A stretch of 64,000 nt of DNA, from positions 469,173-533,172 of the forward strand of contig WELA01000805.1 of assembly GCA_009602735.1 (NCBI GenBank), written 5' to 3'. A program made the translations under genes and the position numbers. The notes beneath the pieces were generated by a model. That model searched no databases and was not told the DNA's origin. It was given only the letters and a program-made list of their open reading frames with translations. Shown piece by piece: positions 6,537 through 31,311 of this stretch; the first letter of the stretch is position 1; each line of letters starts with the position of its first letter. This DNA is from Mesotaenium endlicherianum. Lineage: Eukaryota.

Positions 6537-6573
6537 CTCTGGTAACCGCAAGGATATCCAGAAGTATGAAGCT

Positions 6574-7110
6574 ATGAGTGCAGAAATCGCTGAGTTGAAA
6601 GCACAGTTTGCAAAACTAAATGCGCCCAATGTCTACTATGATGCAGATGTTGCAAAAAAGACCGTCTGCAAAGGCGAGAAGCAGCTGCCTGAAAAGGCTG
6701 TGGATGCAACGGCTGCCGAGCAAGCAGATCACAACCGTCTGGTGCCAAGGAATGCTGGGAAGCTTCCTCAGACTTTCCGGATCACTCTGGATGAAAACGA
6801 GATCTCGCAGCTACGACAAACCAGGCCCGGGTCGCGCAAGACATTCAATTTTTCACTGGAGAAGCTGAAGGCTCTGGTGGAACACCGGATCCAGCATGCT
6901 TCTTTGCTTTCTCTCGCTGATTTGCACATCATCTACCCATTCACGGTTTAAGAGGCCGGACATCAGCTGGATATAGCTGAGGAAGGTGCAAATAGCGCCT
7001 CATTGCCCACCAATTTTAGCACCGTGAGAGTGCAAAATAAGGATGGTGCATAAATCTTCAACAAATGGGCAGCTCCCAACATTCTGTTGGATACAGGCGC
7101 ACAGCCAGTC
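6574..7110 (+). pseudogene. Element B late gag-like region and N-terminal half of the aspartic protease
   Basis: Frame of ORF 6574 continues through stops to ILLDTGAQPV (7081-7110), the retropepsin DTG active site. Confidence 0.75.
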
Positions 7111-7875
7111 TGAAAGGGGCAAAGTGCCCTAGTGGAAGCGTAGTGACTCACGAGGAAAAGAACTAGTTGCAATCATACTAAAGAGTGCAGCGGCATATCA
7201 CTAAGAAAGCTTAGGAAAATTACTCAACATTTTGAGTAGCAAGAAACTGCTCACAAATGATATAGGATGAAAGACCTTGTCATTACAAACCCGTAGAAAT
7301 TTACAGAAGTGAAAACTGATATGAAACAAAGAAGTTATGCCTATTTATAATTTTCTGCCTAAATGCTCCTCTCTAGGAGGAAGCTACGGATTTTCCTAAG
7401 TGTTCGTCAAATCGTCCCTTCCAGAATATTCGTGAGTAAGCCAGATCAGTCTAATCTGACGTGTCGGGCCGCATTGACGTCCACATACATGCATCGACAT
7501 TACTAGAATATTCTATCTTAGACGCGCTAGGCTAAACCGAAACTTCTAGGTAAATCGACCTAGTCGGCACTCCACGTCAGCCGAACTTACGTGAAGGTTC
7601 GAGTTTATTCCAACGGGCCAGATCGNTATTCCAACAGGCCAGATCGCTCGACGCTGTCGGTTAATCCGACGCGCGCGCTCACCGCGAATTAAGGACAGTC
7701 GTCAACCGACCTCAAAACCAATTAAACTTCAGAAATTCGTAATTCTCTCAATACTTGACCAAATTCGATGAATTTTATATCAAAATGACCACAAAAATGC
7801 ACTCTACACTACTAGACAGTCAAAACATACTTTCATGAACCCCAAAAATGCACTTTATAAACCTATGACCTTACA
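7111..7875 (-). repeat. 3' LTR of element C
   Basis: TGAAAGG...CCTTACA; direct repeat of 12966-13703; includes a short duplication around the single n at 7626. Confidence 0.93.
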
Positions 7876-7889
7876 TCATCCCCCTCCTC

Positions 7890-9440
7890 AAGATGCGACG
7901 TCCTCGACGCATTCTGCAAATAACGTCTCAACTTACTCTTACAATGAGTCAAGTTGGCCTCTGGCTCCCAAGTGTTGTCGTCCGCATGGTAGCCCTTCCA
8001 CTTGACCAGATACTCTTGAACAAGTCGTTGACCTCGCTTGACTCGTCAATCGCCGACAATCGCCTCCACTTCATACTCCAATACATCATCGATCTCGACC
8101 GGTGGTGGCGGTGTAGGTAGTCGTCCTGGATGTCCTTCATTCGGGTCAACGTATGGCCGCAGACAACTGACATGGAACATATCATGGATACGCCAGCCTG
8201 AAGGAAGTTCCAACTTGTAGGTCACTGCATTCACCTGCTTGAGCACCGAAAATGGACCTGTAAATCGTGCCCGCAGGTTCCTCTTTCCTGTGAAAGGTAG
8301 GCTTTTTGTTGACAAGAGTACTTTGTTGCCCATATGGAATGCCACTTCCCTCCGATGCTTGTTGGCATGCTTGACCTGCTCTTCTTGTGCCTTCCGTATA
8401 GATGTCTTAGCCATGTCCCAAGTCTTGGCCATCTGCTCCATAAACGCTTGTGTAGTAGGAACCTGAGTCTCCTTGGCCTTCTCCAACAAGATGTTCCTTG
8501 GATGATATACTTCTCTTCCATAAACCATGGTGAGTGGTGACTGCTTGGTCGATCCTTGCATGCTGTTGTTGTAGGCAAACTCCAACCCTGGTAGCTTCTT
8601 GTCCCACTCTGAAGGGTCTTCCATAGTGAAACTCCTGAGCACCTCTTGCAGAGTTCTGTTGAGTCTCTCACTCTGCCCGTCTGTCTGAGGGTGATAGGAA
8701 GTACTCATACTCAGCTTGGTCCCCATCAAAGTAAACAATGATCGCCAAACGTTGCTAGTAAACCTTGGGTCCCGATCTGAAACAATCACCTTTGGCAACC
8801 CATGTAGCCTAAAAATATGATCAAAGAACAGCCGTGCCACATCTGCTGCCGTACAAGTCTTCTTCATGGGAATGAAGTGTGCCATCTTGCTGAGCCGATC
8901 ATACACAACCCAAACTGCATCGTGCCCTTGACCACTCATTGGTAACGACGTCATGAAGTCCATAGCAATCTGCTCCCAAGGATACTCTGGAATAGGTAGG
9001 GGCTGCAATGTACCTCCCTTCTTTTGATTTGGTGTCTTGTTACGCTGGCACGCATCACAAATCCTGATCCACTCCTCGATGTCCTTGTCCATATTTCTCC
9101 AATAGTACTCTCGCTTCAGCACGCTTGCCGTCTTCTCGCTTCCAAAGTGTCCAGCATATAAGCAACCATGATGCTCTGCAAGTAGTAAGTCTCGTTACTC
9201 CTTGATGTCTGGAATCACTACTCTCTTGGAATCACCATAATACCATATGCCGTCCTCCTTCTGCATTCTTGAGTTGGACTCAGCTGCTCCACCATCAGCA
9301 AACTCTGGGTCCTCCTCATAACCTCTCTGAAGCTTCTCCTTGATGTCCATATTCTCCTTGATGACTGAAACAGCTGCAAGGTCACACCTTCTGGATAAGG
9401 CATCTGCAGGGTTGATCTTCCCAGGTAAATACTCAATCTC
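7890..9440 (-). pseudogene. pol: Element C integrase plus chromodomain (stops at about 9195 and 8046)
   Basis: CDACQ, IAMDF, SDRDPRF, QSER; after the TGA at 8046 the frame reads QEYLVKWKGYHADDNTWEPEANL (chromodomain). Confidence 0.9.
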
Positions 9441-10177
9441 CAGGTTACGCCGTACGCCGTACTGGCCGACCTTCGTACGCTTAATTAAGCGTACTGAGTC
9501 GATACGCACGTATTAAGCGTACGTACCCTTTTAGACACGTGCGGACTGGGCCTTGACGCCGTCCGACGCCCGTTTAGTCCGCAAGTTAAGCTTTTTATTT
9601 TCGAAGTTTCAGGTTGCCTCCGTGCGACGGGGCTTAAAATTATGAATCGACAAACTTTCGGCAGCAAGGGCAGGATCTTCAGTGTCGACGCGTTTTGCTT
9701 GCTTTGGCAAACGAGAACTCATCTACCACTGCTTGCTACCAGTTGGTGAGAGTTTGTATAACTTGCCCATAATCTAATAGTCGAGACGGGACAGGCTACT
9801 TCTGGCATTGTATGCTTGTCTCTTGAAAACGAGCGACAATTCTTTACGAGCAATGTTGGGGGGGTGGAACTTGGTGCCAAGTAACGACATTATACGCGGT
9901 TGGCGCTTGGAAAGGTTCGAAGTTCGAATGTCTCTCGCGCCGATAGGCTTTGCTACGGTTGCCGACAGGGGTTAGAAACGGCTATTGTGGTAAGGCTCGA
10001 GAAAGGGAAGGCCAGGTCACATGCAACTGAGGGGCGGGACCCACTCCTTGTCCGTTCTCTGACCCTGTCAGACATGGCACTACTCTTGTCTCACGGAGTG
10101 AGCATCCCTTCTGAGGTCACGATTGAGTGTCAAACGAATAGTTCTCTGATGTGAGGAGTACAAGTTAACGTATTTTG
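9441..10177 (+). mobile_element. Truncated single end of a hAT-related DNA transposon
   Basis: Begins CAGGTTACGCCGTACGCCGTACTGGCCGACCTTCGTACGCTTAATTAAGCGTACT, nearly matching the left end of the hAT at 38913. Internal sequence then diverges and no second TIR is visible. Confidence 0.75.
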
Positions 10178-11981
10178 AAGGAAGTTCTGGACTGGCGATT
10201 GCCAATACAGGTGCCTGTGTCAACAGCTCGTTAATCTTCTCAAAAGCTTGCTGCTCCTTGTCACCCCATAGCCACTTCTCCTGCTTCTTCAACATGTCCG
10301 TGAGCGGTGCACACACCTTGGCAAATCCTTCAATGAAACGTCGATAATAATTCGCTATGCCGAGGACACTGCTGAGTTGATGAATATCAGCAGGTAGCGG
10401 CCAATCTCTGACTGCTTGCACCTTCTTCTGCTCCACCTTGACTCCTCCAGCCCCCACTATGTGTCCATGAAACTCGACTTCCTTGAGACAGAAGTCGCAC
10501 TTGCTCATCTTCCTATACAGCTTTTGATCACTTAAGACCTCCAACACCTTCCTCAGATGCTCTACATGCTCTTCCAAGGTCTTCGAATAGATCAGGATAT
10601 CGTCCAAAAATACCACCACAAACTGGTCCAAATAGGGTCTGAAGATACTATTCATGAGTCCCATAAATGTAGCAGGTGCATTAGTCAATCCAAAAGGTGT
10701 GACTGTGAACTCGAACAAACCATAGCGAGTTCTGAAAGCAGTCTTCTGAACGTCTCCTTCCGCAATCCGTACCTGGTGATAGCCACTCCTCAAATCGATC
10801 TTCGAGAAATACTTCGCCCCGACAAGCCTGTCAATCAACTCGTCCACTCGTGGAAGTGGGTACCTGTTCTTGATGGTGACCTTGTTGAGTGCCCGGTAGT
10901 TGACACACATCCTCATAGTCCCATCCTTCTTCTTCACAAATAAGACTGGCGCTGCAAATGGAGACTCGCTGGGTCGGATGAATCCCTTCTCCAATAACTC
11001 CGTCAGTTGCTTCTTTAACTCATCCAACTCCGCAAACGATTGTCGATAGGCGGGTCTCACTGGTGGCTTGCTCCCTGGTTCCAACTCAATCTTGTGCTCC
11101 ATAGCTCTCTGTGGAGGTAATCCTGCAGGTAGCTCCTCAGGAAATACGCACTTGAACTCCTCCAACAGCGCCTTAATTTGGGCAGGCATCTCAGCAGGCT
11201 TCTTCTCTTGAGCAGTTGGGCTCTGCTCCTTCTGAGCAAGGGGATCAGACACCACTACTTGCTCCTCCGGCGATGTACATTCGCCCAGGCTGTTAGGATT
11301 CACGCTTGCTCCATCTGATGACCTGGCCAGGGCCACCGAAACAAGGTACATCTCCTTCACCTGATTCGCCCTGCATAGCTTCTTAACTTGCAGGCTCGAC
11401 AGAAGACAGTTACTTGTGGTCGTATCTACCTCCACCTGTTTCGCTGTCTCCATTCGACCATCACGCCCTTGGACTTTCACTTGTCCTGTGCTCCAGTGCA
11501 CTTGAGGGTTGGCTTTCCTTAGCCATGGTCGGCCCAATATCACCTCATGGTGACCCAACTCTGCCTGCTCCATAACTTCCTTACTCCGGTGCCCCGCTAC
11601 TTCCACGTGAATAGCTTCCGTAGGTGCACCACACTTGAGTCTCTGCCCATTTGCCAAAATTGCCTCCTTAGGCTCATAATGCTTCTGCACAGGGACTCGC
11701 CACTCTTTCACCAGCTTCTTGTGCACAAAGTTTGCACTTGCGCCACTGTCGACCATACACTTCGCATTGTTGCCGTCGACCACTCCTTCCACGATGATAG
11801 GCTTGTCAACGTCTCGTCCTTTGCTTCTCGGCAGGCTCCTGGGGATAACCTCCTTGTGAGTTCTCGTCTTCACGCCAGTAGACACCCCAGAACGACTTAC
11901 TGGCGTCCTCCTTTTTCCTGCTGTTGAGGTTGCTTCGCCTTCACATGACAGTCTCGAGCCAGATGTCCAAGCTTGCCGCAA
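10178..11981 (-). pseudogene. pol: Element C pol N-terminal part (protease and RT), truncated before RNase H
   Basis: MVDSGAS protease site; [20 protein letters not shown]; retroelement similarity ends at [12 protein letters not shown]. Confidence 0.92.
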
Positions 11982-12928
11982 CTATAGCACGGTCCTCTCG
12001 GCTTGAAATTCTGCTGCCTGCGCTGGTACTGCACAAGTCCCAACTCCATGGGTACTGGACCTTGAACACTCGTGCTTGGCGCTTGAGATCCAAAGTGTCG
12101 ATATCCTCCAAAGTTGTGGCTGCCCCACTGCCTCTGACTATACTCCACAGCGTCGACCCTTGTTGCCAATGCCATCATTTCTCCAAGACTGGTAGGGTCC
12201 TTGAGCGCCACTTCCTTGGCCACAGTTGGCTTGAGTCCCCTCTTGAACTTGTCCATCATCTCCGACTCGTGCATGGATGGACATTGAAGCACCAGCTCGT
12301 TGAAGCGCGATACATACTCCTGAACGCTTCCTCGCTGACGAAGGCGCACCAATAGATCTCGAGCGGTAGCCTCGGGTGCAATAGGTTGAAATTGCCTCTT
12401 CAAGCCTTCAAATAGCTGATCAACAGTAGCAGGAACTCCAGACAGCTGCTCTTCTCGTTCATACCAAGCTCCAGCACTCTTCTGCAGCAAAGTTATGACA
12501 AAGGCGACTTGCCTGTCGGGCGTGAGCGCAGAATACTCCATAAACTTCTTCACTCCAAAAATCCATTGATGAACAGGCGGCGATCCACGCTCTCCAGTAT
12601 AAACTTCAGGCTTAGGTGCACGCACTCCTGATGCGGGTGGAATAACTGGTTGCACCACTGGGTTAACATGAATCGGTGGTACAACAGGTGCAGGTGCCGA
12701 ACTCGTCGAAGCGGCGTTCCCCATAACAACTCGCACCATTCTCTCCACCTCCGCGCGCATATTTTGTTGAAACTGGGTGTAGACTTCTCCTCCAATTGCA
12801 TTTGCCATTTGCCTTAGCATCGTCTGCATCTCTTGTTGCTCTCTGGTCATTGTTGGTGCTGCCTGCTGCCCCGCGCGCTCAACATGCTCGACATGTTCGT
12901 CTCCTCCAGCTGCCGGATGCGACTCCAT
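11897..12928 (-). CDS. gag: Element C gag with CCHC zinc knuckle
   Basis: 343-aa ORF after the [35 protein letters not shown]; overlaps pol in the -1 frame. Confidence 0.92.
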
Positions 12929-12965
12929 AATATAATATGCAAACTAGCCCTGCTCCGATACCAGA

Positions 12966-13703
12966 TGAAAGGGGCAAAGTGCCCTAGTGGAAGCATAGTG
13001 ACTCACGAGGAACAAAGCTAGTTGCAATCATACTCAAGAGTGCAGCGACATATTGCTAAGAAAGCTTAGGAAAATTACTTGACATTTTGAGTGGCAAGAA
13101 ACTGCTCACAAATGATGTAGGATGAAAGGCCTTGTCATTACAAACCCGTAGAAATTTACAGAAGTGAAAACTGATAAGAAACAAAGAAGTTATGCCTATT
13201 TATAATTTTCTACCTAAGTGCTCCTCCCTAGGAGGAAGCTACGGATTTTCCTAAGTGTTCGTCAAATCGTCCCTTCCAGAATATTCGTGAGTAAGCCTGA
13301 TCAGTCTAATCTGACGTGTCGGGCCGAATTGACGTCCACATACATGCATCGACATTACTAGAATATTCTATCTTAGACGCGCTAGGCTAAACCGAAACTT
13401 CTAGGTAAATCGACCTAGTCGGCACTCCGCGTCAGCCGAACTTACGTGAAGGTTCGAGCTCATTCTAACGGGCCAGATCGCTCGACGCTGTCGGTCATTC
13501 CGACGGTCGCGCTCACCGCGAATTAAGGACAGTCGTCGACCGACCTCGAAATTAATTAACCTTCAGAAATCCGTAACTCTCTCAATACTTGACCAAATTC
13601 GATGCACTTTATATCAAAATGACCACAAAAATACACTGTACACTAATATACAAAATACTTTTATGAAACTCAAAAATGCACTTTATAAACCTATGACCTT
13701 ACA
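12966..13703 (-). repeat. 5' LTR of element C
   Basis: Direct repeat of 7111-7875; adjacent to the PBS. Confidence 0.93.
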
Positions 13704-13708
13704 CAGTC

Positions 13709-13987
13709 ATTTTGGGAAAACGAGCTGTGAAAGCTCTAGGTTTGACGACAAGGGACCTGAAAGAGAGTCCTTTTTAGTTGAGAATTGCCTCAGGACAAGT
13801 CTCAAAGTCTTGTGGGATTACCCGCAAGCCTGTGAAAATCACAGTAAATTTAGGGAAACCTGAAGAGGCGTCACTATTCATGGAGTGCACAGTGACGGAA
13901 GCTGAGAACTATGATGTTCTCTTGGGAACAGAAGCACTGATTCCCTTGGGTATGATCATTGATCTGCGGAAACAGAGAGTGACTTAG
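13709..13987 (+). pseudogene. Element B protease, C-terminal half
   Basis: ILGKRAVKALGL...LRIASG...YDVLLGTEALIPLGMIID (retropepsin flap and ILG motifs), in frame with DTGAQPV once element C is removed. Confidence 0.8.
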
Positions 13988-14329
13988 CAGTCAACAGATA
14001 GACAGCCGGCAGGAGAAATTCCTGTGAAAATGGTTTGCATAGGAGAAGCAAACTACGGACTGCCAGACTGCTACGTTAATGACAGGTACCCAGAAGCCAG
14101 CGACAACCTCATGAAGCAAGAAGAGGAAGGCTATACAAGCATCAACATACCAACACCCTTGGTATGGCAATCCCGGATCATGAAGCAGCTGGAAACTGTG
14201 AGTAATAGGGACCACGGCCCTCAAGAGCTGCTGCCAGTACCCTACCCAGTTACCTCCTTTGCAAATCTGATGCCTGGAGTGGAGCCGCTGCCGCAAGGCA
14301 TTGTCAGGATGGAAGATCCTTTCCGCAAA

Positions 14330-15200
14330 AGGGGAGTGGTGGTGTTGGAATTATTTGCCGCACTTGGCTCTAGGACCATAGCATTGATCCAGCGAGGAAT
14401 ACAGTTGGCCAAAGTCCTGTATGTGAACAACGATGACCACGCTTTTTGAGCATTCCAAGAGGTCATGAATCAGATGCGGCAAATGCATCATTTTCAAAGG
14501 TTGGCACCTATATATAGCAATGTTGAGCGCATTGCTGGAGGCAACATTATGAACGTGAAGCCTGAATACCTGTATGGCTACAAGATTGATTGGATCTTTG
14601 CTGGATTCCCTTGTCAACCATTTTCTCAAGCTGGAAACAGGAGGGGATTCAGTGATCCACAAGCACAACACTGAGGATGGATGGTGAAAATCATCAGCAT
14701 ACTGCGGGAACGTCAGCACTATCACCCACCTGTGTTTGTGATTGAGAACGTACATCCAGGAATGGACTACAAGCAGATGAAGCCGGGAGAACCATGGCTC
14801 ATTTTTGACTCCACTTTGGGCCATCATGTGCTAATCAACGACGCCAAGCACGAAGGATTGTCTCATAGGGCCAGGATATTTTGGACCAACGGCATGTCTA
14901 TCGAGGTTCTGAGAGAAATGGAGGACATTACACGGCGATCACCAACAGCCTTGACAGTGGAAAAGGCACTGGCGGTGCATACCAGACCATTGACCTGGAG
15001 GGATTCCTATCCACAGTGTGTCATCAACGAACCAGGTCAGCCAAGAGTGGTACTGCCTACCTTTACAGCATATCCAGGATCCTGAGCCTTCAGAGGAGGT
15101 GGACCAGGAATGGTCAAGGACATATATAAAAGAGACGCCGTGTGGAGGGAGCCCACCGCGGTGGAAAAGGGCAAATGCCTTGGAATACCCGACCACATAG
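14330..15200 (+). pseudogene. C5 cytosine DNA methyltransferase domain (DNMT3/DRM-like) inside the element B polyprotein
   Basis: One frame gives motif I VLELFAALG (about 14340), motif IV IFAGFPCQPFSQAG (about 14595-14635), motif VI FVIENV (about 14735-14752) and motif VIII DAKHEGLSHRARIFWTN (about 14840-14890). A motif IX-like EPTAVE/RANALEYP spans a frameshift at about 15165. TGA stops at 14447, 14672 and 15083. Confidence 0.9.
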
Positions 15201-15240
15201 CTCGGCATATAGCTGGTGCTGTAGGATCAGATGAGGCAGC

Positions 15241-17449
15241 ATGATCGAGCAGCACTCTATGACTTGGTTGGTGGAAACAATCACGACATGGCAACAGTTG
15301 ACCTTCACTGACAAGCCTATGCCAAGACCTAGACCAGTAACAATAGGGATCAATGTGGTGCCAACATCTGACCAGAGGGCTATCAGAACAGCACATCAAC
15401 AACAAGAAGAATACTGGGTGCAAAGAGACGCAGCGGAAGCCGCTGTAGACAGAGCATACAGGGGAGATAGGATGGCAGAACTGATGAGATGTCAGAATCT
15501 ATTGGACCGGATTGATAACCGGACCAATAAATTACAAGCACCTTTGGAAAGAGAGGATACACCCATGAGGGATCAGGCGCCTGAGCAAGCAGCACCGCTA
15601 CCAGGAGTGGAAGACGATACGCATGGCACCCCATTATCTGTGAGAAACGCCACTCACAGCCAGATTTTTGGGAGCTCACCTCTCGGAACAACGACATCAA
15701 GACGTGAAGAGACCCCAGAAGAGGCGAGGTCAGGGTATGGTACCCCCCTCAGCCCAAGGGCAGCTGGGCACGGAGACAATTGGCAGAAAAGCTCAAGTAG
15801 CTGGAAAGCCAACCAAAGTAACTATCGTCTTCACCGGAGCGAGCATCGTTAAAAGACATGTCAGAAGCATCTGAGCAGAAGGCTCCTGAGCCTACAACTG
15901 AAAATACCGGATACTGCTTAAACCAAGTACCAAGGCAAGAACGCCAGTGCAATCTTGGTGAATGGGCCGAAGAGAGTAGCCAGAACTCAGGAGATTCTGG
16001 AGGGTCTGCAAAGACCATATGTCTTGAAGTAATATTCGAAGAACGCCAGGAGGAGTTGGACAACAAACTGTTTACAACACCTGCCTTGATGAGCCCAGAG
16101 CCGCAAGCTAAGGGGCAACAGCAGGGTTCAGCCAGTCAAACAGCTGAATCCATTGCAAGGGAAATCATGGAGCAGCTGCTGGACGTAGGCGCCCAACAAC
16201 ACAAGGAACGGGAAGTGCCTAAGGCGGCAAGCACTCTGCAATCAGCCATCGTCAACTTGGCAAAGCTCAACACAGATAATGAAGGAGAAACGCCACCACC
16301 TGGAGCGGAGAAATCAATTGAAGATGAGGCAGAGATGCCAGACCTTCCAAGGCTTGACCTGCCGTCAGTCACCAATGAAGAGGAGATTCAGGAAGCAATT
16401 CCAAGTTTTCCTACCCCAGAACTGGATCTATTGGAGCTACAAGAAGTCAGAACGGATGACTGGGTGAACGACCAATTGATGATGGAAGGACCCAACCCGG
16501 CCAATCTTTACAACGATCTAAGGTCGCCTACATCCAGCACTCCAACCGCCAGTTTGCCGGCACCAAAAGCTACCCCACATCAGCTACAACAGCCGCAGGA
16601 AGTGGCTGCCTGCACCGCTAAGGTGGAACCAACACAAGGAAATCCTCACGGTCGCGCAAGCAGACCAAGAAAGGTTGCCCGGGAAGGGAATGCACCTTTC
16701 AGGCGGATGCTGATGCGTTACTTCAAGTACAGGAAAACAGCTCCAAGAGAAGGGTTTCCGAAAGGAACCACGGCTCCTCCTCCGCAACCTATCCTAGAGA
16801 TTTTGCAGAGAGAGGGAGAGGATGGCTTAATTCGCAAAGCCGTGATTTTCGGAATTCACATTCCATGGTGCATCCCTCATCCACTGAAACATGGGAGAAG
16901 GACAGTTCAGCTCCTAGGACACCTACAGTGTTGGAAAGGGAATTGGTAGAGCTAAGAAGCACCATAAGCCGCTTGACAGCAGAAAATGCTGTATACGCAC
17001 AAATAGCTGCGGCCCAAAGATCGCAGACTATGACACAAACATGGACGATTACGCCACCAGCCAGAGAGGAGTTTGGCACAACCGTTGCGCGCATAGCTAC
17101 CATTGAGCGCGAATGGGGTTGGACAATCGACCCCAGAGCAGATCCAGCAGGGTGGCCTTTGCCAAACCCACCCGCACCACTTGAAGAAGGAGGAACAGGG
17201 ACCAGCTGGACTGCGGCCGATGAAGAAAGATTCTTGAGGCAGCCCATCCGGAGGCGCCTGACCTACACCACGCAACCAGAAAGGCGACGATCTATCGGGA
17301 AAGGTAAGAGGCCTAAGAAGCAGGCCTCCAAGCCTGAGATAGCGGAGGAGCAAGCTGCAAAGCCTGCCACTCCACCGCCAAACAATCAGGCAGAAAAGCC
17401 TGAAGGCCAGGATGAGGGCGGAAACCCCCCACCTGGACCCAAAGAGTAG
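15241..17449 (+). pseudogene. Long low-complexity (P/E/Q/T/A-rich) linker of element B between DNMT and RT, frameshifted
   Basis: Consecutive long ORFs 15241, 15858 and 16865; the last is in frame with RT; no recognisable domain. Confidence 0.55.
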
Positions 17450-20224
17450 CAACTACTGGATGCCTGTGTTGGGGAAAAGCAACCAGCAACTGAGGTTTTC
17501 ACCATGGGAAACATAGTCTCAGCCCAACAGAGAGCACAAGTAGAAAGGCTGCTGAAGAAGCACCGCAAGGTGTTTGCTTTTACCAAAGAGGAGAATGGTA
17601 GAACCACCGCCGGTGTGTGTGAGATCACACTAACTACTGATAACCCAGTCAGACTTGGGCCTCATAAGCTCAGTCAGACCAAATAGGACTGTGTGGAGAA
17701 AACTTGCCAGGAGCTGCACAAGCTCAGCATGATCGAGAAATCAACCTCAATACATGGATCTCCCACGGTAGTAGTTGCCAAGAAGGACGATGATGGCAAT
17801 TATACAGCAACTCGTATGTGTGGAGACTACAGAGGACTGAATCTTCACACAGAGCCAGACAGCTATGTGATGCCTACACCAGAGCGGATTTTTGCGATTG
17901 CTACCACCGGGAAGGTGTTCAGCATCATCGATCTACGCCAAGGGTTCAACCAGATCTCTGTGAAAACAGAAGATCGAGGTAAGACCGCTTTCTGGGCCCA
18001 AAGGGAACTTTGGCAATGGACGGTAATGCCGTTTGGACTGAGAAATGCTCCAGCCATCTTTCAGAGGACTATGGATAAAGTGCTGGAGGGATTGGATTTC
18101 GCAAAACCATACATCGATGACATGGTGGTATTCAACAAGTCCATAGAGGAGCACCTGGAGCATTTGGAACAAGTGTTCCAGCGCCTAGAGAAATTTCAGA
18201 TGACGTTGCACCCTGGACAGTGCAAATTCTTTGAGGCACATGTGCCTTACTTAGGACATGAGATTGGGAACAATGCTATGTCCCCTCAGGTTGTAAAGAC
18301 TGAAGCCATTTACAAGATACCTGCACCAACGAATATGTCTAAGCTTAAAGGTCTGTTAGAGCTAAGCGGATACTATCGTAAATTTGTGAAGGATTATAGC
18401 AAAATTGCTAAACCCTTCACAGAACTCCTGAAAAAGAACGTACCTTTTGTGTGGACGGAAGAGGCCATGAACGAGCTCAAGGAGCGGCTGGTAACAGCCC
18501 CAGTCTTGCGAACACCTGACTACTCCAAGCCGTTCAATTTACACACCGACTGGAGTCGTGTGGGAATTGGCGCAGTACTCACTCAGGCCAAAAGTCCTAG
18601 AGAGGAGTACGTCATTGCCTATGCCTCGAGCTCTAACAACCGAGCGGAGAGCAACTACTCGTCCTACAAAGGAGAGCTACTGGCAGTGGTTTGGATTGTT
18701 GCACATTTTAGAAAGTATCTGTGGGGAAGACCCTTCACGCTGATCACAGATCATTTGCCATTACTTTGGCTGATGAAGAATGGAGACCTCACTGGTAAAC
18801 TGGCTCGTTGGGCTCTCAAGCTCCAGGAGTACCAGATGACGGTGATATACCGAGCAGGTATACTCAACAACAAAGCTGATGGACTCAGCAGGAACCCGGA
18901 CCCATCCGCAGACGACAGAACAGGAGCTCGAGAAGACGAAGATCCGAGCAGCCCCACAGAATCGGCCGCCTGCCTGGCCGAAATGGCTAGAATGGTAGCA
19001 TCAAGAGAAGCTGAGCCCCTACCTTTGTTTAGTCCAGAAATCTGGAAAGATCAAGCCACTATGCATTGGTTGAAGACGGGGGCCCATATAGAAGGATTAT
19101 CGGCAAAAGAAGAGGACCAGGTAGGCCATCGAGCTAAAAGGTTTTGCTGGAAACGCAATAAATACTTCAAGATTGAAGAAACTGGTCAGGAAAAGTTAGT
19201 GCCAGAACCCACCAAAAGACGAGCTCAAGTGCAGGAAATGCATGAGAATACTGGACACTATGGTGTCAAGAAGACATACAGTCTTCTGGAGCTGTCTTAC
19301 TGGTGGAGGGGCATGAAGCAGCGGTGCGAGGATGTGATCAAGGCCTGTACAAGCTGCGATCGCGTCAAGGCTGGTTTTACGCAGCAACACCCACACCTGC
19401 AACCTCTGCCAATCATGGACCTAGGCTACCGGTGGAGCTGCAATCTCGCAGGTGAGCTACCGCTGTCCAAGCGAGGTAACAAGTACATTATGGTCATGAT
19501 TGAGCATTTTTCTAAGTGGATAGAGGTGGTGCCTCTAACCGCTAAGGAAAGCTTGGGGACCGTGGAAGCGCTCCTCAATGGTGTGATTGTACGTCATGGA
19601 GCCCCAGCAGAAGTGCTGACAGACCAAGGGTCTGAGTTCCAAGGATCTTTTAAGAAACTCCTGGATAAATGCTTCATTGACCATCGCACTACGTCTAGAG
19701 ACCACCCACAAGCAGATGGTCTGGCAGAACGGATGGTGCAAACCATTAAGTCTGCTTTACGCAAACTTTGCCTTGAGCATGATAAGCGTAATTGGGATCT
19801 GGCCCTGCCATGGCTGGTTATGGGTTACAAATTAAGCAAGCAAGCTGCTTTGGCAAATTACTCGCCTTATGAAATTCTGTTTGGAAGAAGTCGAGTTGTG
19901 CCCAGCAGCATCAAGCAGGACATTGAGCAGGTGAAAGATCTGGACAACCCTGATGAATTGTTAAAGGTCATGTTGCGCCGCAAGGTGCTATTTGAGTACA
20001 TGATGCCTGCTGCCCTAGACAATCTGAAAATTGCACAGAAAAGAGACACACAGCGTTACGCTAGGACGCAAGATGGGAGCTACCGCCTGCAAATGACGCA
20101 GATCCAGGAAGGAGACTTCGTCTACCGCAAGCGCCAGACTAAGACCACCATTGACACCAGGTGCAGTAATCTTACGCGTGAAACATGCGTTCGACAATGG
20201 TGTGTTGGAACTGGAAGGTTCTGA
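17450..20224 (+). pseudogene. pol: Element B RT, RNase H and integrase
   Basis: RMCGDYRGLN, IDLRQGF, MPFGLRNAP, YIDD; LHTDWS; HENTGH...CTSC; TDQGSEF, GLAER. Stop at 17684, first integrase Asp appears as Asn (WSCNLAG), frameshift near 20160. Confidence 0.93.
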
Positions 20225-20330: not shown

Positions 20331-20459
20331 TGTGCCAACTGCAAAGTACTGGATGATCAAGAAGCAATGGTAACCTGCGATAAGTGTGGTGCCCGTTAGC
20401 ACACCTTCTGCATTGGTGAAGAAGAGATTTTGGCAGGACAATGGGAATGTCTTGACTGC
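20331..20459 (+). pseudogene. PHD finger (C4HC3) at the end of element B pol
   Basis: Hand translation: CANC-KVLDDQEAMVT-CDKC-GAR*-HTFC-IGEEEILAGQWE-CLDC; the TAG sits where an aromatic residue (TGG) is typical. Confidence 0.85.
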
Positions 20460-21519: not shown

Positions 21520-24500
21520 CTATTTGCTCACTATCTCTTTTAGTCCTAGCATCTCAGCACACCATTGGTGCCTTACTCTAGAAACAGCCTTTGTCAAGGC
21601 ATCAGCCACCATCTTATCAGTTCTAACAAACTTGAACTCTACACTACCATTAAGCACACACTCTCTGCACTTATGATATTGAATATCTATAAGTTTACTC
21701 CTAGCATGCTCAACAGGGTTCTTTCCTAATGCAATGCAGCTCTGACTATCACTCAATATAATAGTGGGCCTCTTTTGCTCATAGCCCAGGTCCTCCAGAA
21801 GTCTTCTCAGCCACAGTGCCTCTCTCACTGCCTGTGAGGCTGCCATATACTCTGCCTCCATGGACAACAAGGCCACCACCTTTTGTCTCTTGCTCTTCCA
21901 GGTCACAGCACCCTTAGCCAGAGAGAATGCATAACCTGTTGTAGACTTCCGAGTGTCTATGTCTCCTCCCCAATCAACAACACTGCACCCTTCTAGCCTC
22001 ACACTATCACTTCCTCAAAGGTGCAACCACAGGTTTGGTGTCCCCTTGAGATATCTCATGATCCTCTTCATAGCCTCCCAGTGTGCAGGGCCTGGATTCT
22101 CCATGAATTGACTCACTATCCCGACTGCGTTAGCAATATCGAGACGTGTGCACACCATCAGATACATGATACTACCTGCAACCTTCCTCATGGGCACCTG
22201 AGACATCATCTCCCACTCCTGCTCATCCTTAGCACACATACTCGAGCTCAGCTTGTGCTTAGGATCAAGGGGCACACTGACAGGCTTACAGCCCATCATA
22301 TCAAACCTCTCCAGCACTGTCTGCAAGTAGGCTGGCTGACCCAGCATTACAATCCTCTTGGCCCTATCTCTCTTCACCTGAATGCCAAGCAGGAACTGTA
22401 CCTCTCCCAAGTCCATCATATCGAAGGCACAACTCAGGGCATCCTTCACCTTCTGCACCTCCACCATCTTCTTGCCAACGAGCAGCAGGTCATCAACATA
22501 TAGTACCAGCATCACCCTGTCATCACCTGCTCCCTTCATATACAAACTGCTGTCAGCATTGGACTTCACAAATTCCTCACCATGAAGAAAGGAGTCTATC
22601 TTCTGGTTCCACACTCTTGGAGACTGCTTCAGTCCATACAGGGACTTCTTCAGCTTGCACACCTTCTTCGGGAACTTCTCATCAATGAATCTCTCTGGCT
22701 GCTCCATGTAGACCTCCTCCTCCAGCTCTCCATACAGAAATGCAGTCTTCACGTCCATCTGATGCATCTCCATATCCTCCACTGCGGCAATCTGCGCCAC
22801 GACTCTCACTGTGGCAATCTTTGCAACTGGTGCAAAAGTCTCATGACAGTCTTCTCCCTCTGTCTGGGAGTAGCCCTTTGCCACAAACCGCGCCTTGTAT
22901 TTGTCCACTAATCCATCTGCCTTCCTCTTCTTCCTGTAGATCCACCTGCCTCCCACAACCTTCTTACCAGGTGGCAGCTCTGTTAGGTCCCATGTCTCAT
23001 TCTTTGCCAGTGACTCCATCTCTTCCTCAGAAGCCTTTCTCCACTTAGCTGCTTCCTCTGTTTGCATAGCAGCCTCAAAGGTCTTGGGCTCTGAGTCATT
23101 TACCATGTAGACCACCTCACTCTCTACAGTGTCCTCCTCAGCCATCGACTCAGCCACGCTTACATACTCATCAAAGCCAAATCTAGCAGGTGGCACACTC
23201 TCTCTTCTTGAGTGTCTAGTTGAGCCATGGCTCTCTCCACTAGTGGACGCTTCTCCTCCTGCACGTGATCTGGAGCTCCTCTCAGCTCCCTCTGTTGCTT
23301 CTGCCTCCCTGCCTGCCAGTCTCCTTGATCTTCTCTCCTCTGGTGCTGTCGCTCCCTGAGGTCGTGGACTTGTTCTCTTCCTCTCCTGTGCTGCTCCCTC
23401 TGAGAGTCTAGGTCCTGTTCTCTCCCCAATGAACTTGACCTCGTCCTCAGAATCAGAGGCTGCTCCCTCTTGCTCATCACTCCTTGATTCAAGCTCCTCC
23501 TGAGCTTCAATGCCTGGTTGCGGCATCTCTGGCAGTGCCTGAGCTCCAGCAGCAGGGGCAGCTCTTGCAGCAGCTTGAAGCCGAGTCTCAACTCTGCTCT
23601 GCTCTTCTCCCTCTGGTACAAACTCTTCATAGAGTCTAGAGCTCCCAGGATCCAGCACCTTCTCGTTGAAGATCACATCTCTGCTCACGATCACATCTCC
23701 TGTTCTCACTTTCACCAGCCTGTACCCTTTGCTGTTGGTGTCATAGCCCACGAGTAGACACCTCTCAGACTTGGGTTGCAGCTTGTGCCTCTTGTCCAAG
23801 GGAATATGGGACCACACCTCTGTCCCGAAGACTCTCAACTCTTGCACAGAGAGTTTCTTCCCACTCCAGACCTCTTCAGGAATCCTTCCACCAATAGCAG
23901 CCGATGGCAGCCTGTTACTCACATAAGTAGCAGTGCTTACAACTTCTGCCCACAAGCTCACGTTTTGACCAGACGCAAAGATCATCGCTCTTGCAGCCTC
24001 CACAAGAGTCCTGTTCTTCCTCTCAGCAACTCCATTCTGCTGAGGAGAGTAAGTGATAGTCAGCTCATGCTTGATTCCTTCGTCCCTCAGAAACTTGTCA
24101 AAGTAGCCGTTGACATACTCAGACCCATTGTCAGTCCTCAGGGTCTTGATCTTCTTTCCCAACTGCTTCTCCACGGATGCCTTGTACTTCAAGAACTTTT
24201 CATACGCCTAATCCTTGGTTCTCATGAAATACACCTCAGTCTTCCTGGAGTAGTCATCTGTGAAGGTGATGTAATACAAGTTTCTCGACAATCTGGCTGT
24301 TACACTAGCAGGTCCCCACACATCTGAGTGGACCAACCCCAGCAGCTCACTAGCCCTTGAAGCTTCTCCCTTTGGGAATGCCTTCCTGGCCTGCTTCCCC
24401 ATCTGACATCCCCTGCAAAATTCTAAACTCTGCTTTGTAAAGTCTGGCAGCCCTCTCTCCTTGTCTTGTGCCATCTGCTTCAATCTCTGCTCACTCACAT

Positions 24501-24717
24501 GTCCCAGCCTCTGGTGCCACAGGTTGATGTCACTCTCCAGCTTGGCACCTCCCTGTGCACCAAGTGCAAACTCAACCTGAAGAACCTGGTCCATTACAGA
24601 TAGAGCAATCTTAGTTTGGCATTGGATTTTAAACAAGCTGCCTTGAACACTTGACTTCACAGCCTTCATTACCACATCACCGTCCGAGTCCATGACTCGA
24701 CACTCACTTCCAGACAC
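21520..24717 (-). pseudogene. pol: Copia pol with in-frame stops at about 24208 and 22015
   Basis: LWHQRLGH, VHSDVWGP, RTDNGSEY, QQNGVAERKNR, YKARFVAKG, QMDVKTAFL, LYGLKQSPR, LYVDDLL, RKSTTGY, IDIQYH. Confidence 0.95.
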
Positions 24718-24849
24718 TCACTCAATTTCAGACCATTCCGACAACATCGCCGCAAATGGCGCTAAAAAGTACCTAAGTGTCTAAAAAATGGGCATTTGGA
24801 CTGCATGTGATGGCAACCAAGGACACACAATTTGGAGGAGGCATTGCAA

Positions 24850-26041
24850 GGCCCCCACGGGACCCACCTGCAGCACTGGCGCCTACGGCAAAGCACCAGA
24901 AGCTCACGGTGACTTCCGACGTGTCGACGCCCGTCGCGGTAGCGAAGTCGGCGTAGATGCTGCCGAGATAAGTGCAAAAGTATTCAGTAGGTATGCTCTC
25001 TTGCAGTGTCCCTGCACCCGGAGGCTTCACAGGCGTATCCAAGACCAACACCGTGACAAACGTGGTAGCACCTCCTATTCGAGGAGCAAAGTCGATCCAG
25101 GCGTATTTGGGGTCACCATCTGCGGGAGTGGTTTGGCGCTGAGCTTGAGCGGGAGAAAACATGCTGTATCCTAAGTCCACTCCCACCGAGCTGTCAATGC
25201 CATCATCAATCTTATTATTCTAGGCAATGTCAAACTTGATGGCAAGGGACGGCTCCGCAGGAGGCGACGCCGCAAACCCCCAGCCCATGTATTTCCCGGT
25301 GTCCCCCAGGAGGCCTGGCAGCAGGTTGAGGAAGAACACCATCCTGTCCGCGTGATTTCCATCGATCTCGGGAGTCATCCAGAATTGAAAGGATGTGCTC
25401 CAGGGGACGCTGTCGCAGCCGGCACCGCCCGAGTAGTCCTGCAGCGTGAACGCCGTCGCGTAGCTAGCTATTCCTGCCTGGTTTGTAGGGGCCTCCGTCG
25501 TCAGCCGGAGGTGGCTTCCAATGGTTGCGGCTGATCTGTCGTGGATGAATTCGCTGATGCCGCTGAAGTTTGAGATGAACACGTACTCTGCAGCACAAAA
25601 GCAGCTTAGCAACCACAATATATCTGTTAGAAGATTGTCACTTACAGCAAAAACACAGAAAGGAAGACCACCTGCAGTGCTCAATCTTGCCAAGGGACCT
25701 CACCATGCTCAAGGGCAAGGGCAAACTAGAAGAGCCAAAAGAAGGGCAGTGCAGCAGCATGACTCGCCCACGCACAAGCCCAGCTTGTCTACTCCGGCCA
25801 GTCAGCGGCACAAAGCGGAAACTATGAGGCGTATGACTCACCAGGGGATGCAGATGGTGGTGGAGAGGTTGGTGGCGGAGGAACTGGTTGGGGGGAGGAT
25901 TACTGCAATGAGGCGGTGACGGTGATGACGGTCGCGGGGAGGACAGTTGTTGAACAAAAGATGGCGGAGGGGATGGTGGTGGCGAGGATGGTGGAGGGGA
26001 GGCAGGTGGCGGGGAGGATGGTGGCAAAGAGCTTGATGGTG
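24850..26041 (-). pseudogene. Legume (L-type) lectin domain gene, copy 1, with an upstream Ser/Pro-rich exon; frameshifted
   Basis: WSTSFQF...HADRMVFFL...LAIKFD, then VGVDL...KYAWIDF...YADFATATG...VSFWCF in a shifted frame. Acceptor TGCTGCAG near 25590; SPPP-rich exon about 25842-26041 flanked by AG and GTGAGT. Confidence 0.72.
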
Positions 26042-26943
26042 CTGCACACACATGCACTCAAGAGGCAAGGCAAAGTGAGGGAGAGAGGTTCTTCTTTCAA
26101 TCAGCAGCACCAGAGGTTTCACCAAAACACCTGCCGCACGCACCCTTACGGAAGAATTGGAACCCAAACTCGAACATAGCCACACCACTGGGGTTGCCTG
26201 ACAGCGGTTGTTGAGATGCTGACTTATGAGCCACCTGTCCATAGAGAAATACAACAACATGCAAGTGCTTCTTTGATTGCAACATGCTGTGAAAAGTGTG
26301 CATTCTGCCACGGGTAATTAAGGAGGCGGCTCTGCAAAGTCAATGAGGATTGAACATGGCCTGGTCATCATAGGTGCAACGGGTGGACTTCACAAGATTG
26401 TCACTGTCAGAAGTGAAGCCAACAACAGACTGGATAGAAAAGGGTCACAAAAGAGAGAGTGCAGGGGACACATTGGCCCTTCGGGCACAGTCCTCACTTA
26501 GCATAGTGTATTAAGGTGGCCGCGGCGTTGGACGACATTCTAAGAATACGTACTTGCATGCACAACTCAAAGCATCAGGAGTGGAAGTGAATATGGCTGG
26601 GAAGGCGGCAAGAAGACTTACGAGGAAGTGCAACACGCAGTGAAGCCGGGAATGCGGCACACTTGGCTGCACACAATACACGGGTCAAGGTACCCCCCTC
26701 CTCCAACAAGACGAGAGAGTGAACAAGTCTTTTCATGAACAAGTTGAGCATCACACTACGTGTGTATGGAAAGCCACCGGTCATCTTTCTGGCATGTAGA
26801 GAGCAATGGCTTGAGGCTGGCTTTTAAGTGCTGATCTTACTTGATTGCATGCTTGACTTTGGACGGACCACTTTGGTCTTATAGTGGTGGTCCACGCAGG
26901 CACTGGGGGGCACTTGTCCTAGTTCCTCGTGGGGACCATGCCC

Positions 26944-27891
26944 TCATGGGCTTGCCATGGATGTTTTGACATCACGCTCCACTTCACTTGCCAAAAGCAG
27001 TTCAAGCAGGGGCAGAAAAAGAGTCAAAATAGGAGCCTGAGGAAGACGATCAGGTGCGTGCACCACCGCAACCGAGTCAAGTGCTTGCAGAAGGGTACAT
27101 ACTACTTTCACAACCTGACATGGGGCAAGAGCGACAAGAGGTGACGAGGCCCCGTGGGACCCACTTGCAGCACTGGCGCCGCTGGCAAAGCACCTGGAGC
27201 TCACGGTGACTTCCGACGTTTCGTCGCCCGTCGCGGCAGCAAAGCCAGCATGAAGGTTGCCCGGGGAGCGGCAGAAGAGGTTGCTGGCCACGACCGCAAG
27301 CATGGGTCCGGCCGTCGTCGGCTTCACGGGCGTGTCCAAGACCCACCCCTCGAGGTGCGCACTCACAGAGCCTGCCTGAGGCGTGAAGTTGACCCAGGCG
27401 TACTTGGGGGCGCCGTCCGCAAACTTGACCACCCTCTGGAAGTTGTACGACGAGAGAGACACTATGTTGAAGTCCAGGTCCACCCCCACCATGCTGTGCA
27501 CGCCGACGACGTCGCCAAAGCTTGCGTTGGGGTGGATGTCATACTCGATGGCAAACGACGGCCCCGCAAGAGCAGATGACTCGAACCCCCAGCCCATGAA
27601 GTTTCGCGCGGCCCCCAGGAGGCCCGGGAGCGGGATGAGGAAGAACACCATCCCGTCCGCGTGATTTCCATTGGGCTCGGGAGTCATCCAAAACTGAAAG
27701 GATGTGCTCCAGGAGACGCTGGCGCAACCGGCGCCGCCCAAGTAGTCCTGCAGCGCGAACGCCGTCAAATAGTTGGCCATTCTAGTCTGCTTTGCGGCGG
27801 CCTCCGTCGTCAGCCGGAGGAGGCTTCCCACGGCCACGATCAATCCGTCGTAGACAAATTCGCTGGCGCCGCTGAAGTCCAAGACAAACAC
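26944..27891 (-). CDS. Legume (L-type) lectin domain exon, copy 2 (open frame; true exon limits uncertain)
   Basis: LRLT...SWSTSFQFWM...ADGMVFFL...SFAIEYD...VGVDLD...YAWVNF...KPT...AGFAAATG...VSSRCF follows the legume lectin motif order. Small PPPSPPLPPPG exon at about 28179-28219. Confidence 0.75.
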   Translation of the reverse strand: MFVLDFSGASEFVYDGLIVAVGSLLRLTTEAAAKQTRMANYLTAFALQDYLGGAGCASVSWSTSFQFWMTPEPNGNHADGMVFFLIPLPGLLGAARNFMGWGFESSALAGPSFAIEYDIHPNASFGDVVGVHSMVGVDLDFNIVSLSSYNFQRVVKFADGAPKYAWVNFTPQAGSVSAHLEGWVLDTPVKPTTAGPMLAVVASNLFCRSPGNLHAGFAAATGDETSEVTVSSRCFASGASAASGSHGASSPLVALAPCQVVKVVCTLLQALDSVAVVHAPDRLPQAPILTLFLPLLELLLASEVERDVKTSMASP

Positions 27892-29791
27892 ATACTTTGT
27901 AGCAGCAGCAGCACAGGGAGCACATCGGGCAATAGGTCAAAAAGGACTCGTGAGCATCCGCCACCTGGAGGGTCCGTTGGCAATGCCGGCAACTTATGCG
28001 GCTGCTTCTTGCGAGGAGAGCACTCTCACAGATGCTGCCGACCCAATGCAGCTTATGGGTGCATGCTGCTACAATGAGCAAGACCAAGTCGACGCGTTAC
28101 TTGCAAGCCAGCAAAAGATGGGAGCAAAAGGCCATGGGCACGGGCTTAAATTCGGGAGCAGGCAAATGAGTGGCTCACCGCCAGGAGGCGGCAGAGGAGG
28201 CGATGGAGGTGGTCCGCGGCTACGCAATGACAACGAAGGCGGTTAGCGGACAAGCGCAGCATCAGCACTCTCTCTCATTAAGCCGCGCAAGCACCAAGGC
28301 CCCACGCAGAAGTCAGCACGGAGCAGCAGAGTTGGGGCAATAGTGCCATTGCCTTGGGTTCACCTCCTATCTTGCATGTACTCAGCCTTTTGCCGCACAC
28401 GATACCAGGAGGCTAGTGACATGCGAGGGGACGAAGATGGCAGCAGAATATCTGATAGTGGAGAAGTTGGTAGAGGGCGGGAAGGTGGCACTCCACGCTC
28501 TGGCGGCCTATACTATTGCCGAGTTGTGAGCAATGGATACTCGGGCATAGCATAACAAAGAGGGGCAAGAGGACGACGTGCACTCGCGGTCCTCGTGTGC
28601 TAAAACGATCCGGACATAGGAGCGCTCGCGAAGACAAGTTCAAACAGGATGCATTTGGACTTGAAGCGGACCAACTTAGGGACCACCACGGCCCTCTGAT
28701 GAGATTGTCTCCCACAAATCGCTCACGACGAAGAAAGCAATACGCGGAGCTTAATCTTGGCCCTGACATTGCCGGGGAAATGGCAAACAAGACGGAGGAA
28801 AGCAAGGCGAACAATGCAGCAGCATGCATTATCCAGGAACACACCCATACACAGAGAAGGCAATGCAATTCAAAGGGGGAAACAACAAAAATCAACCACC
28901 ACTAGCAACAAACTCCACTACGCGCCCTTGGTGAGGATCCGATGACTTATGCTTGAACATAGCGACGCCACCCTGAGCTGTTGCAAATTTGCCTCGTCAG
29001 AGAGAGTAGAATGATGTGCAAGACCTCCTCCAGTTTCAAAAAGGATTTAGAGGTTTGCATGCAAGTCGCAACGGTGGCAAGGTATGTAGTGAGGACTGCC
29101 ACACAACGCGCCAGCACTTGTAGATGCAACAGGTGGAGCTCACAAAAGTGTCAGTGAAAGCAATGTTGCTGCCAAGAATCTTGTTGACAAGAGTGTCCAC
29201 ACAACATATGGGCGCTACAAACGGATCGATGTGTCTGCCACAGGCTGTGCATTACATATGATATGGGAGGCCGTCTTGAGGTGTAGCTACAAAGGGACAA
29301 CAATGGCAACTGACGTGCAAAGGAAGGTCTTGCAAGAGTACCAGGAGTAACCGGAGAATATGGCCAGGCTGGCGACAAGAATACTTACGAGGAAGCGCAA
29401 CCAGCGGCGGAGCCGGGAACGCAACGCACTTGGCTGCAGACAAAGCACCGACCAAAGTGCCCCCCGGCCCCCGACAAGACAGCATAGTAAGAATCACAGG
29501 GCCTGTGAATCTAATGAGCTGAGCAGTGCTGAGCGCTGCGTGTGGAGAAGCTTCTGGCAAGTAGGGGCAAAGGCTCAAGGCTGGCTCAAAGGTGCTCATT
29601 TGATTCAATTGCGTGCTTGTTCCTACCAGCTCCCCTTTGGTTTTGATAGCGGCTACTTCTGGTTTCTGCTATTCTCAGGGGCGGTCCATGCAGGCACTGG
29701 GGGCCTTGTCCTAGTTCCTTCTGGGGACCATGCCCTCCTGGGCTCATCATGAAGGGTCAACACCGTGATCCACTTCAGTCGGAAAAGCAGT

Positions 29792-30050
29792 TCAAGTAGG
29801 CAGCAGAAAGAGACAGCGAATAGGAGCCCGAGGCGGACGATCAGGTGCCTGCACCACCGCAATCGAGTCATGTACTCGCAGGAGGGCACATACTATTTTC
29901 ACAACCAAACATGGAACAAGAGCGGCAAGAGGTGGCGAGGCCCCGTGGGACCCACCTGCAGCATTGGCGCCGCTAACAAAGCACCAGGAGCTCACGGTGA
30001 CTTTCGACGTGTCGTCGCCCATCGCAGCAGCAAAGCCAGCGTAGACGCTG
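29792..30050 (-). pseudogene. 3' remnant of a third lectin copy, truncated by the LTR of element D
   Basis: VYAGFAAAMGDDTSKVTVSSWCF; downstream about 29340-29950 resembles 26580-27150. Confidence 0.7.
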
Positions 30051-30771
30051 TGTAAGGTCATAGGTTTATAAAGTGCATTTTTGAGTTCCTTGAAAGTAGG
30101 TTTTGATTGCATAGAACAGTACAGTGCATTTTTGTGGTCATTTTGATATAAAGGTCATCGAATTTGGTTGAGTAATGAGAGAGTCGTGGACTTCTGAAGT
30201 TTAATTAGTTTTGAGGTCGGTCGACGACTGTCCTTAATTCACGGTAAGCGCGACCGTTGGATTGACCGACAGCGTCGAGCAATGTGGGCCGTTAGAGTGA
30301 AATCGAACCTTCACGTAGTTTTGGCTGACGCGGAGTGCCGACCAAGTCGATTTACCTATAAGTTTCGGATTAGCCTAGCGCGTCTAAGTTTGCATATTCT
30401 AGAAATATCGATGCATGCATGTGGACGTCAAATCGGCCCGACACGTCAAATGAGACTGATCTGGCCTACTCTCGAATATTCTGGAAGGGACGATTTGACA
30501 AACACTCAAGAAAATCTGTTGCTAAGCGGCCATTCTGCCTAGAGAGGAGGACTTAGGTCACAAAACTATAAATAGGCATAACTTCCTCATTTTCACTTCT
30601 CTACATTTCTACGGGTTTTTAAGGACAAGACCTTTCATCCTAGTCCATTTGTGAGCACTTTCTTGCTACTCAAAATGTCAAGTTATCATCCTAAGCTTTC
30701 TTAGTGACATGTCGTTGCACTCATTAGTATGATTGCAACTAGTGCTTTTCCTCGTGAGTCACCACACTTTC

Positions 30772-31274: not shown

Positions 31275-31311
31275 TCACCCCCCCGATAGAAAAAGCGACG
31301 TCTCGGCGCGT

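Follow-up and report, generated by a model that had tools for sequence, protein, structure and literature searches.

A Gypsy retrotransposon family of Mesotaenium endlicherianum with a DNMT3-like cytosine methyltransferase upstream of a conserved stop codon in a readthrough context

The capture of a DNA methyltransferase (DNMT) by a Gypsy retrotransposon is already published: KnitGypsy-Dnmt3 of Klebsormidium nitens was reported by de Mendoza et al. in 2018 (PMC5890265). The available text of that paper describes the DNMT in one open reading frame (ORF) with the reverse transcriptase (RT) and RNase H, and the argument for action in cis is drawn from this arrangement. The K. nitens domain had no activity in yeast, human DNMT3B failed in yeast too, and the authors consider the result inconclusive. 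The DNMT of SymbioDIRS-Dnmt3, described in the same paper, methylates CG in yeast. The DNMTs of EpiLTRs are sister to DNMT4 and are accompanied by DAM and a chromodomain (bioRxiv 10.64898/2026.05.21.726589). In their available text, both a 2025 paper (PMC12344493) and this 2026 preprint cite Gypsy-DNMT3 as a streptophyte finding. The puzzle posed by such elements is why a transposon retains an enzyme that normally silences transposons.

A second body of work concerns stop codons that are read through. According to the accessible parts of these sources, the type I consensus for readthrough, known from tobamovirus, reads UAG-CAR-YYA (PMC3542737), and the type II context is UGA-CGG, with the pol-env suppression of SIRE1 as a retrotransposon case (PMC3542737, PMC2754532, PMC2829016). 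Plant reporters gave readthrough of 32%, 11% and 9% for such contexts (PMC2754532). Both PMC3441728 and PMC2829016 treat stop-separated retrotransposon ORFs and the CARYYA hexamer. The sequence at the Tca2 junction did not by itself direct readthrough (PMC2194720).

The window, that is, the whole 64-kb stretch of M. endlicherianum DNA analysed here, contains what is almost certainly a decayed member of a multi-copy Gypsy family with a PHD finger and a DNMT3-like methyltransferase. The domain set and its order (protease, RT, RNase H, integrase) are those of Ty3/Gypsy elements (Table 1), and the PHD finger is common among the closest RT relatives. The 5' end of the element has been removed by another element, the end of which lies at 6536; loose ends at this position are found in 110 and 140 contigs of the host (two DNA runs, one sample). 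The remaining part upstream of the protease contains the sequence RLPQTF, which by eye resembles a motif in ORF1 of three relatives (P0009, P0010 and P0014). No terminal repeats were found in the window copy, the 5' end of which is missing.

Table 1. Features of the DNMT-bearing Gypsy copy and of the element nested in it (window coordinates)
Feature	Position	Strand	Evidence or remarks
Truncated 3' part of ORF1: Gag-protease linker and N-half of the protease	6537..7110	+	DTG at 7090-7098
Nested, unrelated Gypsy LTR element within the protease	7111..13703	-	LTRs 7111-7875 and 12966-13703
C-half of the aspartic protease, two point stops	13709..14002	+	Alignment to K. nitens GAQ93235; match to positions 15-113 of a custom protease HMM
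DNMT3-like C5 cytosine methyltransferase, motifs I-IX in a single frame, three point stops	14330..15280	+	Pfam, profile, fold
Low-complexity ORF1 linker, 2.2 kb, without a known domain	15235..17446	+	Three overlapping open frames
TAG CAACTA, in-frame stop in type I readthrough context; predicted ORF1/ORF2 boundary	17447..17455	+	Motif match and conservation
ORF2	17450..20224	+	RT 17741-18274; RNase H 18521-18835; H2C2 zinc finger and integrase core 19421-19849
PHD finger 3' of the integrase, shifted frame, one stop	20331..20459	+	PF00628, E=2e-5

The element nested in the protease, immediately 3' of the DTG motif, has TG...CA ends, LTRs that are 90.7% identical and a 5-bp target duplication (CAGTC at 7106-7110 and 13704-13708). 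Contigs that join 7105 to 13704 directly (4 and 7 in the two DNA runs of one sample) show that copies without the nested insertion exist, and together with the LTRs and the duplication they bear out the split of the protease proposed in the initial annotation. The verdict of that annotation that the copy is dead also stands. RNA reads of two runs, sampled to ~6% and 24%, cover 13705-20028 at a mean depth of 0-0.4, which is weak evidence against expression. Inside the nested element, at 11070-11596, RNA reads pile up to a depth of 113 in one run; they are mostly loose-ended and so probably derive from a transcribed related sequence elsewhere.

Several other repeats share the window. Three diverged repeats on the minus strand lie at 24853-30050; in one of them a legume-lectin domain is open (26947-27936, PF00139, E=3e-18), and the clusters matched by the lectin-like ORF are from Chlorophyta, Oomycota and Streptophyta. 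A young Gypsy element of the chromodomain type occupies 30771-37451; its gag and pol frames are open and its LTRs share 99% identity. A large inverted structure at 38901-59476 contains a duplicated hAT transposase region inside 34-bp tandem arrays; its two arms (41436-45304 and 47663-51531, 3869 nt each) are 100% complementary, and the structure is either a very recent foldback or an assembly artefact.

The frame that begins at 13706 runs from the C-half of the protease through a linker into the methyltransferase; its 512 codons include five point stops (13775, 13985, 14447, 14672 and 15083). Motifs I (VLELFAALG), IV (GFPCQ, with its Cys at 14612), VI (ENV, 14744), VIII (HRARIFWTN) and IX follow one another in canonical order. 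The earlier description of this frame as broken only by point stops holds up to motif IX and fails beyond it: a motif X-like segment, recognised by eye, is in a different frame 3' of a break near 15235. A Pfam search with the protease C-half returned no protease match. The methyltransferase, which the initial annotation had staked on a significant hit to the Pfam family DNA_methylase, matches PF00145 at E=4.7e-16 when the stops are read as X (59.5 bits against a cut-off of 22).

Placing this domain among C5 methyltransferases depends on the family rather than on the single copy. A phmmer search of the PDB with the DNMT of the window copy alone puts the bacterial enzymes M.HaeIII and M.HhaI on top, with DNMT3 absent from the list, and this sequence by itself is thus too diverged for classification. 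A profile built from this sequence and 48 homologs (49 sequences) finds DNMT3A at 2e-26, DRM at 3e-15 and M.HhaI at 8e-12. The AlphaFold model of the domain has a mean pLDDT of 88 and its Foldseek ranks 1-10 are all DNMT3A/B/C; the E-value of M.HhaI is weaker than theirs by a factor of only about 30. It takes the family profile or the predicted fold to bring DNMT3 to the top; by both, the domain is closest to DNMT3A/B, and it is not rearranged, in agreement with the DNMT3-like identity originally suggested. The non-rearranged motif order rules out a DRM.

The domain is widespread. Word-indexed searches with the window DNMT gave five weak matches, the one named match being bacterial, and none among the longer proteins; the family was recovered by HMMER on the representatives of clusters formed at 50% identity, 549 of which match at E<=1e-3. 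The initial view that the arrangement is rare is therefore not borne out. The best 150 of the 549 fall into two domain orders and a remainder. In type A (25 representatives, among them K. nitens GAQ93235 and Closterium) the DNMT follows the protease or precedes the RT. In type B (72, including a cluster of the chlorophyte Scenedesmus sp. PABB004) it lies on the RNase H-integrase side, in the order RT-RNase H-DNMT-integrase-PHD (for example P0045, P0282, P0140, L048, L068 and L071). The other 53 contain no other domain. A quick DNMT tree of 150 rows, each with a DNMT stretch of at least 200 residues, collects all 74 type B rows in one branch free of type A rows (SH-aLRT 86); this tree and the RT tree discussed below are quick searches with SH-aLRT as their only support measure.

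The closest named relatives of the window element are from green algae and liverworts, and the RT relatives P0191, P0192, P0216 and P0221 come from the liverworts Calypogeia fissa and Riccia sorocarpa. One ORF2 protein of the family (P0302) is labelled uncultured cyanobacterium and is likely to be plant DNA in a metagenome bin. Related polyproteins carry further modules: an N6-adenine methylase family domain (PF05869, P0241), G-patch (P0025, P0061) and a Tudor-like domain (P0029). Two rearranged copies contain inverted DNMT fragments 3' of the integrase (L021:3994-4647 and L022:2293-2946).

The methyltransferase could in principle be a one-off capture or a separate insertion that happens to lie in this copy, with the stop downstream of it a product of decay. 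Its long branch in the quick DNMT tree, with at most 40% identity to any match, would fit such an origin. A test set of 80 loci was selected by RT-integrase similarity alone (the best 80 of 281), and 32 of these have the RT and at least 1.6 kb of upstream DNA. Thirty are type A, one is type B and one has no DNMT; with near-duplicates merged, the counts are 25, 1 and 1 (n=27). The locus without the domain, L038, also speaks for a one-off event, but it is 5' truncated about 320 nt before the RT, near the ORF boundary. Relatives with the same RT thus carry the domain as a rule, as expected if it belongs to the element family. Host contigs, moreover, cover protease, DNMT, linker and RT at a summed depth of 8,000-49,000, where the single contigs listed have 40-100; summed depth is not a copy number, and it indicates a multi-copy family. 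The two deep host DNA runs are from one sample, possibly the source of the window itself. With the stop at 17447 also family-wide (see below), a one-off capture is largely refuted and very improbable.

Purifying selection, a check proposed at the outset across copies, was assessed across relatives of the window element. In a comparison of 18 relative loci, with 13 pairs within the dS filter of 0.25-2, the dN/dS of the DNMT is 0.13 and 0.16 between subfamilies, that is, the DNMT is under purifying selection. Among decayed close copies it is 0.27-0.52, like that of their RT.

Between the DNMT and the RT lies a linker that is about 1.8 kb longer in the window element than in most relatives. It yielded no credible Pfam family and no BLAST match among stored proteins. 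Three overlapping stop-free segments suffice to tile it, against a mean of 16 and a minimum of 10 in 500 shuffles, so it is probably coding, and its depth in host contigs is continuous.

The linker ends at a TAG (17447-17449) followed by CAACTA, an exact match to UAG-CAR-YYA that is in frame with the RT and 291 nt 5' of it. Compared with the host contigs, the interval 17400-17720 contains 40 differences at the level of at least 30%, and none of these falls within 17444-17465, at a summed depth of 24,000-30,000 (two runs, one sample). The TAG-CAACTA site is likewise intact in a single contig from a different study, which shows 34 differences over 280 bases. The RT frame opens at 17450 and its core begins at about 17741; the one stop between them, at 17684, 237 bases 3' of 17447, is private to the window copy: in the two runs, 99.7% and 100% of the depth reads differently there. 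The notion that all stops in this region reflect decay is ruled out by this pair, the TAG at 17447 being kept across host copies and the stop at 17684 being private. The window family thus has no uninterrupted ORF in which the DNMT is joined to RT and RNase H, since the TAG at 17447 separates them, and given the conserved stop in a readthrough context such an ORF is not expected in its intact copies. The single protease-DNMT-RT ORF anticipated by the initial annotation does occur in other lineages (P0015, L010).

Similar junctions recur in relatives. Of the 47 RT rows whose loci extend far enough upstream, five (L001, L003, L004, L039 and L078) have a stop followed by CARYYA, in frame and 297-321 nt 5' of the RT. 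These loci are distant from the window element, and in each the motif stop is the only in-frame stop within up to 900 nt upstream. They display four different hexamers (CAATCA, CAGTTA, CAACTA and, twice, CAACCA), and by eye the protein sequence around the junction is unrelated between them and the window. The background frequency of stop plus CARYYA is 63 in 36,730 stops. Seven more rows carry a stop with CAACCC at 297, off the consensus at the last base. One RT clade (the UAG clade; SH-aLRT 99) contains 15 loci, 11 with the CARYYA or CAACCC form, two that are too short and two that are frame-broken. No relative in the tree exceeds 57% identity to the window RT, and an AU test does not reject its grouping with the UAG clade (p-AU 0.36).

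A second type of junction is found in L006 and L030, which belong to the RT clade of K. nitens KFL_013780010: here UGA-CGG, just 3' of the DNMT, is the only upstream stop. ORF1 of K. nitens ends at the same place (AFFSD, against AFFAD at the end of the L006 frame). In several other type A lineages no stop intervenes and DNMT and RT are fused, namely in L010 and its group, P0015, P0165, P0190 and the Closterium protein P0128, and the same holds for P0186 within the UAG clade; a split between DNMT and RT is therefore not required. Three Calypogeia proteins in the RT tree are split between the UAG clade and the fused clade.

These junctions bear on how RT is made. The TAG could be a true terminator, and RT, RNase H and integrase could be translated by reinitiation or from an RNA that is spliced or internally initiated; in that case too, the DNMT would be an ORF1 product. 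Tca2, where the junction does not itself direct readthrough, is a precedent (PMC2194720, as far as its available text goes), and the seven CAACCC loci are compatible with it. The 3' hairpin expected for UGA-CGG is present in L030 (z -3.4) and absent in L006 (z 0.4), and across nine junctions no consistent 3' hairpin was found (z -3.4 to +0.7). Against a terminator, the hexamer stays CARYYA although the encoded residues vary (S, L, P), every motif-bearing case has ORF2 in frame with ORF1, and the position of ATG near the junction is not conserved, L003 having no ATG before the RT core. A true terminator is accordingly an improbable reading, and programmed readthrough at TAG-CAACTA, predicted from its context and conservation, is the probable one.

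With programmed readthrough, most ribosomes would terminate after Gag-protease-DNMT-linker, and a minority would continue, adding RT, RNase H, integrase and the PHD finger. The DNMT, encoded upstream of a stop in a leaky context, would then likely be produced in bulk with the particle proteins; the 9-32% readthrough of plant reporters would correspond to roughly 3 to 10 DNMT molecules per RT. The window copy lacks its 5' end, so the placement of Gag and the DNMT in a single ORF is taken from relatives (P0009, P0010, P0014 and L003), in which long ORFs end 3' of the DNMT, and is a prediction for the window family. As is general in retroelement biology, the protease would liberate the DNMT inside the particle. 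Its target would most likely be the new cDNA, methylated before or at integration; new insertions would thus arrive marked like host DNA, at sites that the PHD finger may choose. Taken as a whole, this scheme, in which the DNMT is made with the abundant Gag-protease product, RT-integrase arises by occasional readthrough and the element's new cDNA is the predicted substrate, is somewhat favoured by the evidence.

Its last step is the least secure, and for an active enzyme that works mainly on the element's own cDNA the prospects are about even. The catalytic Cys of motif IV, the Glu of motif VI and both Arg residues of motif VIII (Arg-x-Arg) are kept in the window copy and in 114-115 of 115 full-length homologs. 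The long-branch window copy has Ala in place of the motif I Gly and Asn in place of the motif II Asp/Glu, two SAM-binding positions that are invariant in 115/115 of these homologs, and has also lost the motif IX Glu, present in 108/115. Alternatively, then, an abundant ORF1 DNMT might act mostly in trans or without catalysis, on host chromatin or other copies or as a nucleic-acid-binding particle protein, with cDNA marking secondary. The SAM-binding substitutions would suit this alternative, as would a DNMT located upstream of the stop and uncoupled from RT and the inactivity of the K. nitens domain in yeast (PMC5890265, in its available text). So would the base composition: CpG observed/expected is 0.49-0.53 in the element and 0.27-0.69 in its neighbours, with no element-specific depletion. 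The near-invariance of the catalytic residues across the 115 homologs argues the other way, and the 72 type B proteins among the 150 best matches, in which the DNMT lies in Pol on the side of RNase H and integrase, fit action on cDNA. As for the substitutions, 9 of 321 positions in 17400-17720 (~3%) are private to the window copy, so decay could account for two or three lost DNMT residues. Action mostly in trans or without catalysis is, on these grounds, unlikely, if less so than a true terminator.

A broader reading extends from the window family to green plants as a whole, and we put it forward tentatively, at somewhat less than even chances. Green-plant Gypsy-DNMT3 would be a large, old lineage ranging from chlorophytes to land plants, with the DNMT at two positions of the polyprotein and, in several branches, UAG-CARYYA or UGA-CGG between DNMT and RT; in these the DNMT would be loaded into the particles at the level of Gag and could methylate host chromatin in trans.

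A search of the openly accessible literature found no account of readthrough in Gypsy-DNMT3 elements or of the type B order. What thus appears to be undescribed is the conserved leaky-context stop that separates DNMT from RT, together with the type B order and how broad the lineage is. The published argument for cis action, in the text available, rests on DNMT and RT being within one protein. If a leaky stop puts the DNMT into the abundant product, that argument fails for the branches concerned and the dose of the enzyme becomes a tuned trait. Fused (P0015) and split (L003) versions coexist naturally with intact ORFs, so that readthrough, activity and cis versus trans action are directly testable.

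Among known methyltransferases, animal DNMT3A/3B are the top profile and fold matches of the window-family domain and share its motif order I to X, but identity in structural alignments is 17-19% and the window domain has no PWWP or ADD. It differs from plant DRM in not being rearranged. SymbioDIRS-Dnmt3, SymbioLINE-Dnmt and EpiLTRs are likewise retrotransposons that carry cytosine methyltransferases (PMC5890265; bioRxiv 10.64898/2026.05.21.726589), but as described in the available text they belong to other element classes or DNMT clades. The window stop resembles known type I readthrough sites in matching UAG-CAR-YYA exactly, in lying in frame between two ORFs and in being conserved. Unlike the type I and type II cases and SIRE1, as their accessible accounts present them, the predicted boundary here falls after protease and DNMT and before RT, and not between gag and pol or pol and env.

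The closest described element is KnitGypsy-Dnmt3 (compared here with the available text of PMC5890265). K. nitens GAQ93235 aligns to the window element over protease and DNMT (26% identity, 525 columns, E=3e-32). Both elements have the Gypsy domain set and a DNMT3-related domain that lacks introns and is not rearranged. Relatives of the window element resemble KnitGypsy-Dnmt3 in two more ways: their DNMT is under purifying selection, and 4 of 20 long related loci (L010, L036, L058 and L066) have A-coding-B-A-B (DIRS-like split direct) terminal repeats. The two differ at the junction: the window family has TAG-CAACTA between DNMT and RT, whereas the published text describes a shared ORF for KnitGypsy-Dnmt3, the K. 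nitens locus of which is represented in the database by two genes, KFL_013780020 and KFL_013780010.
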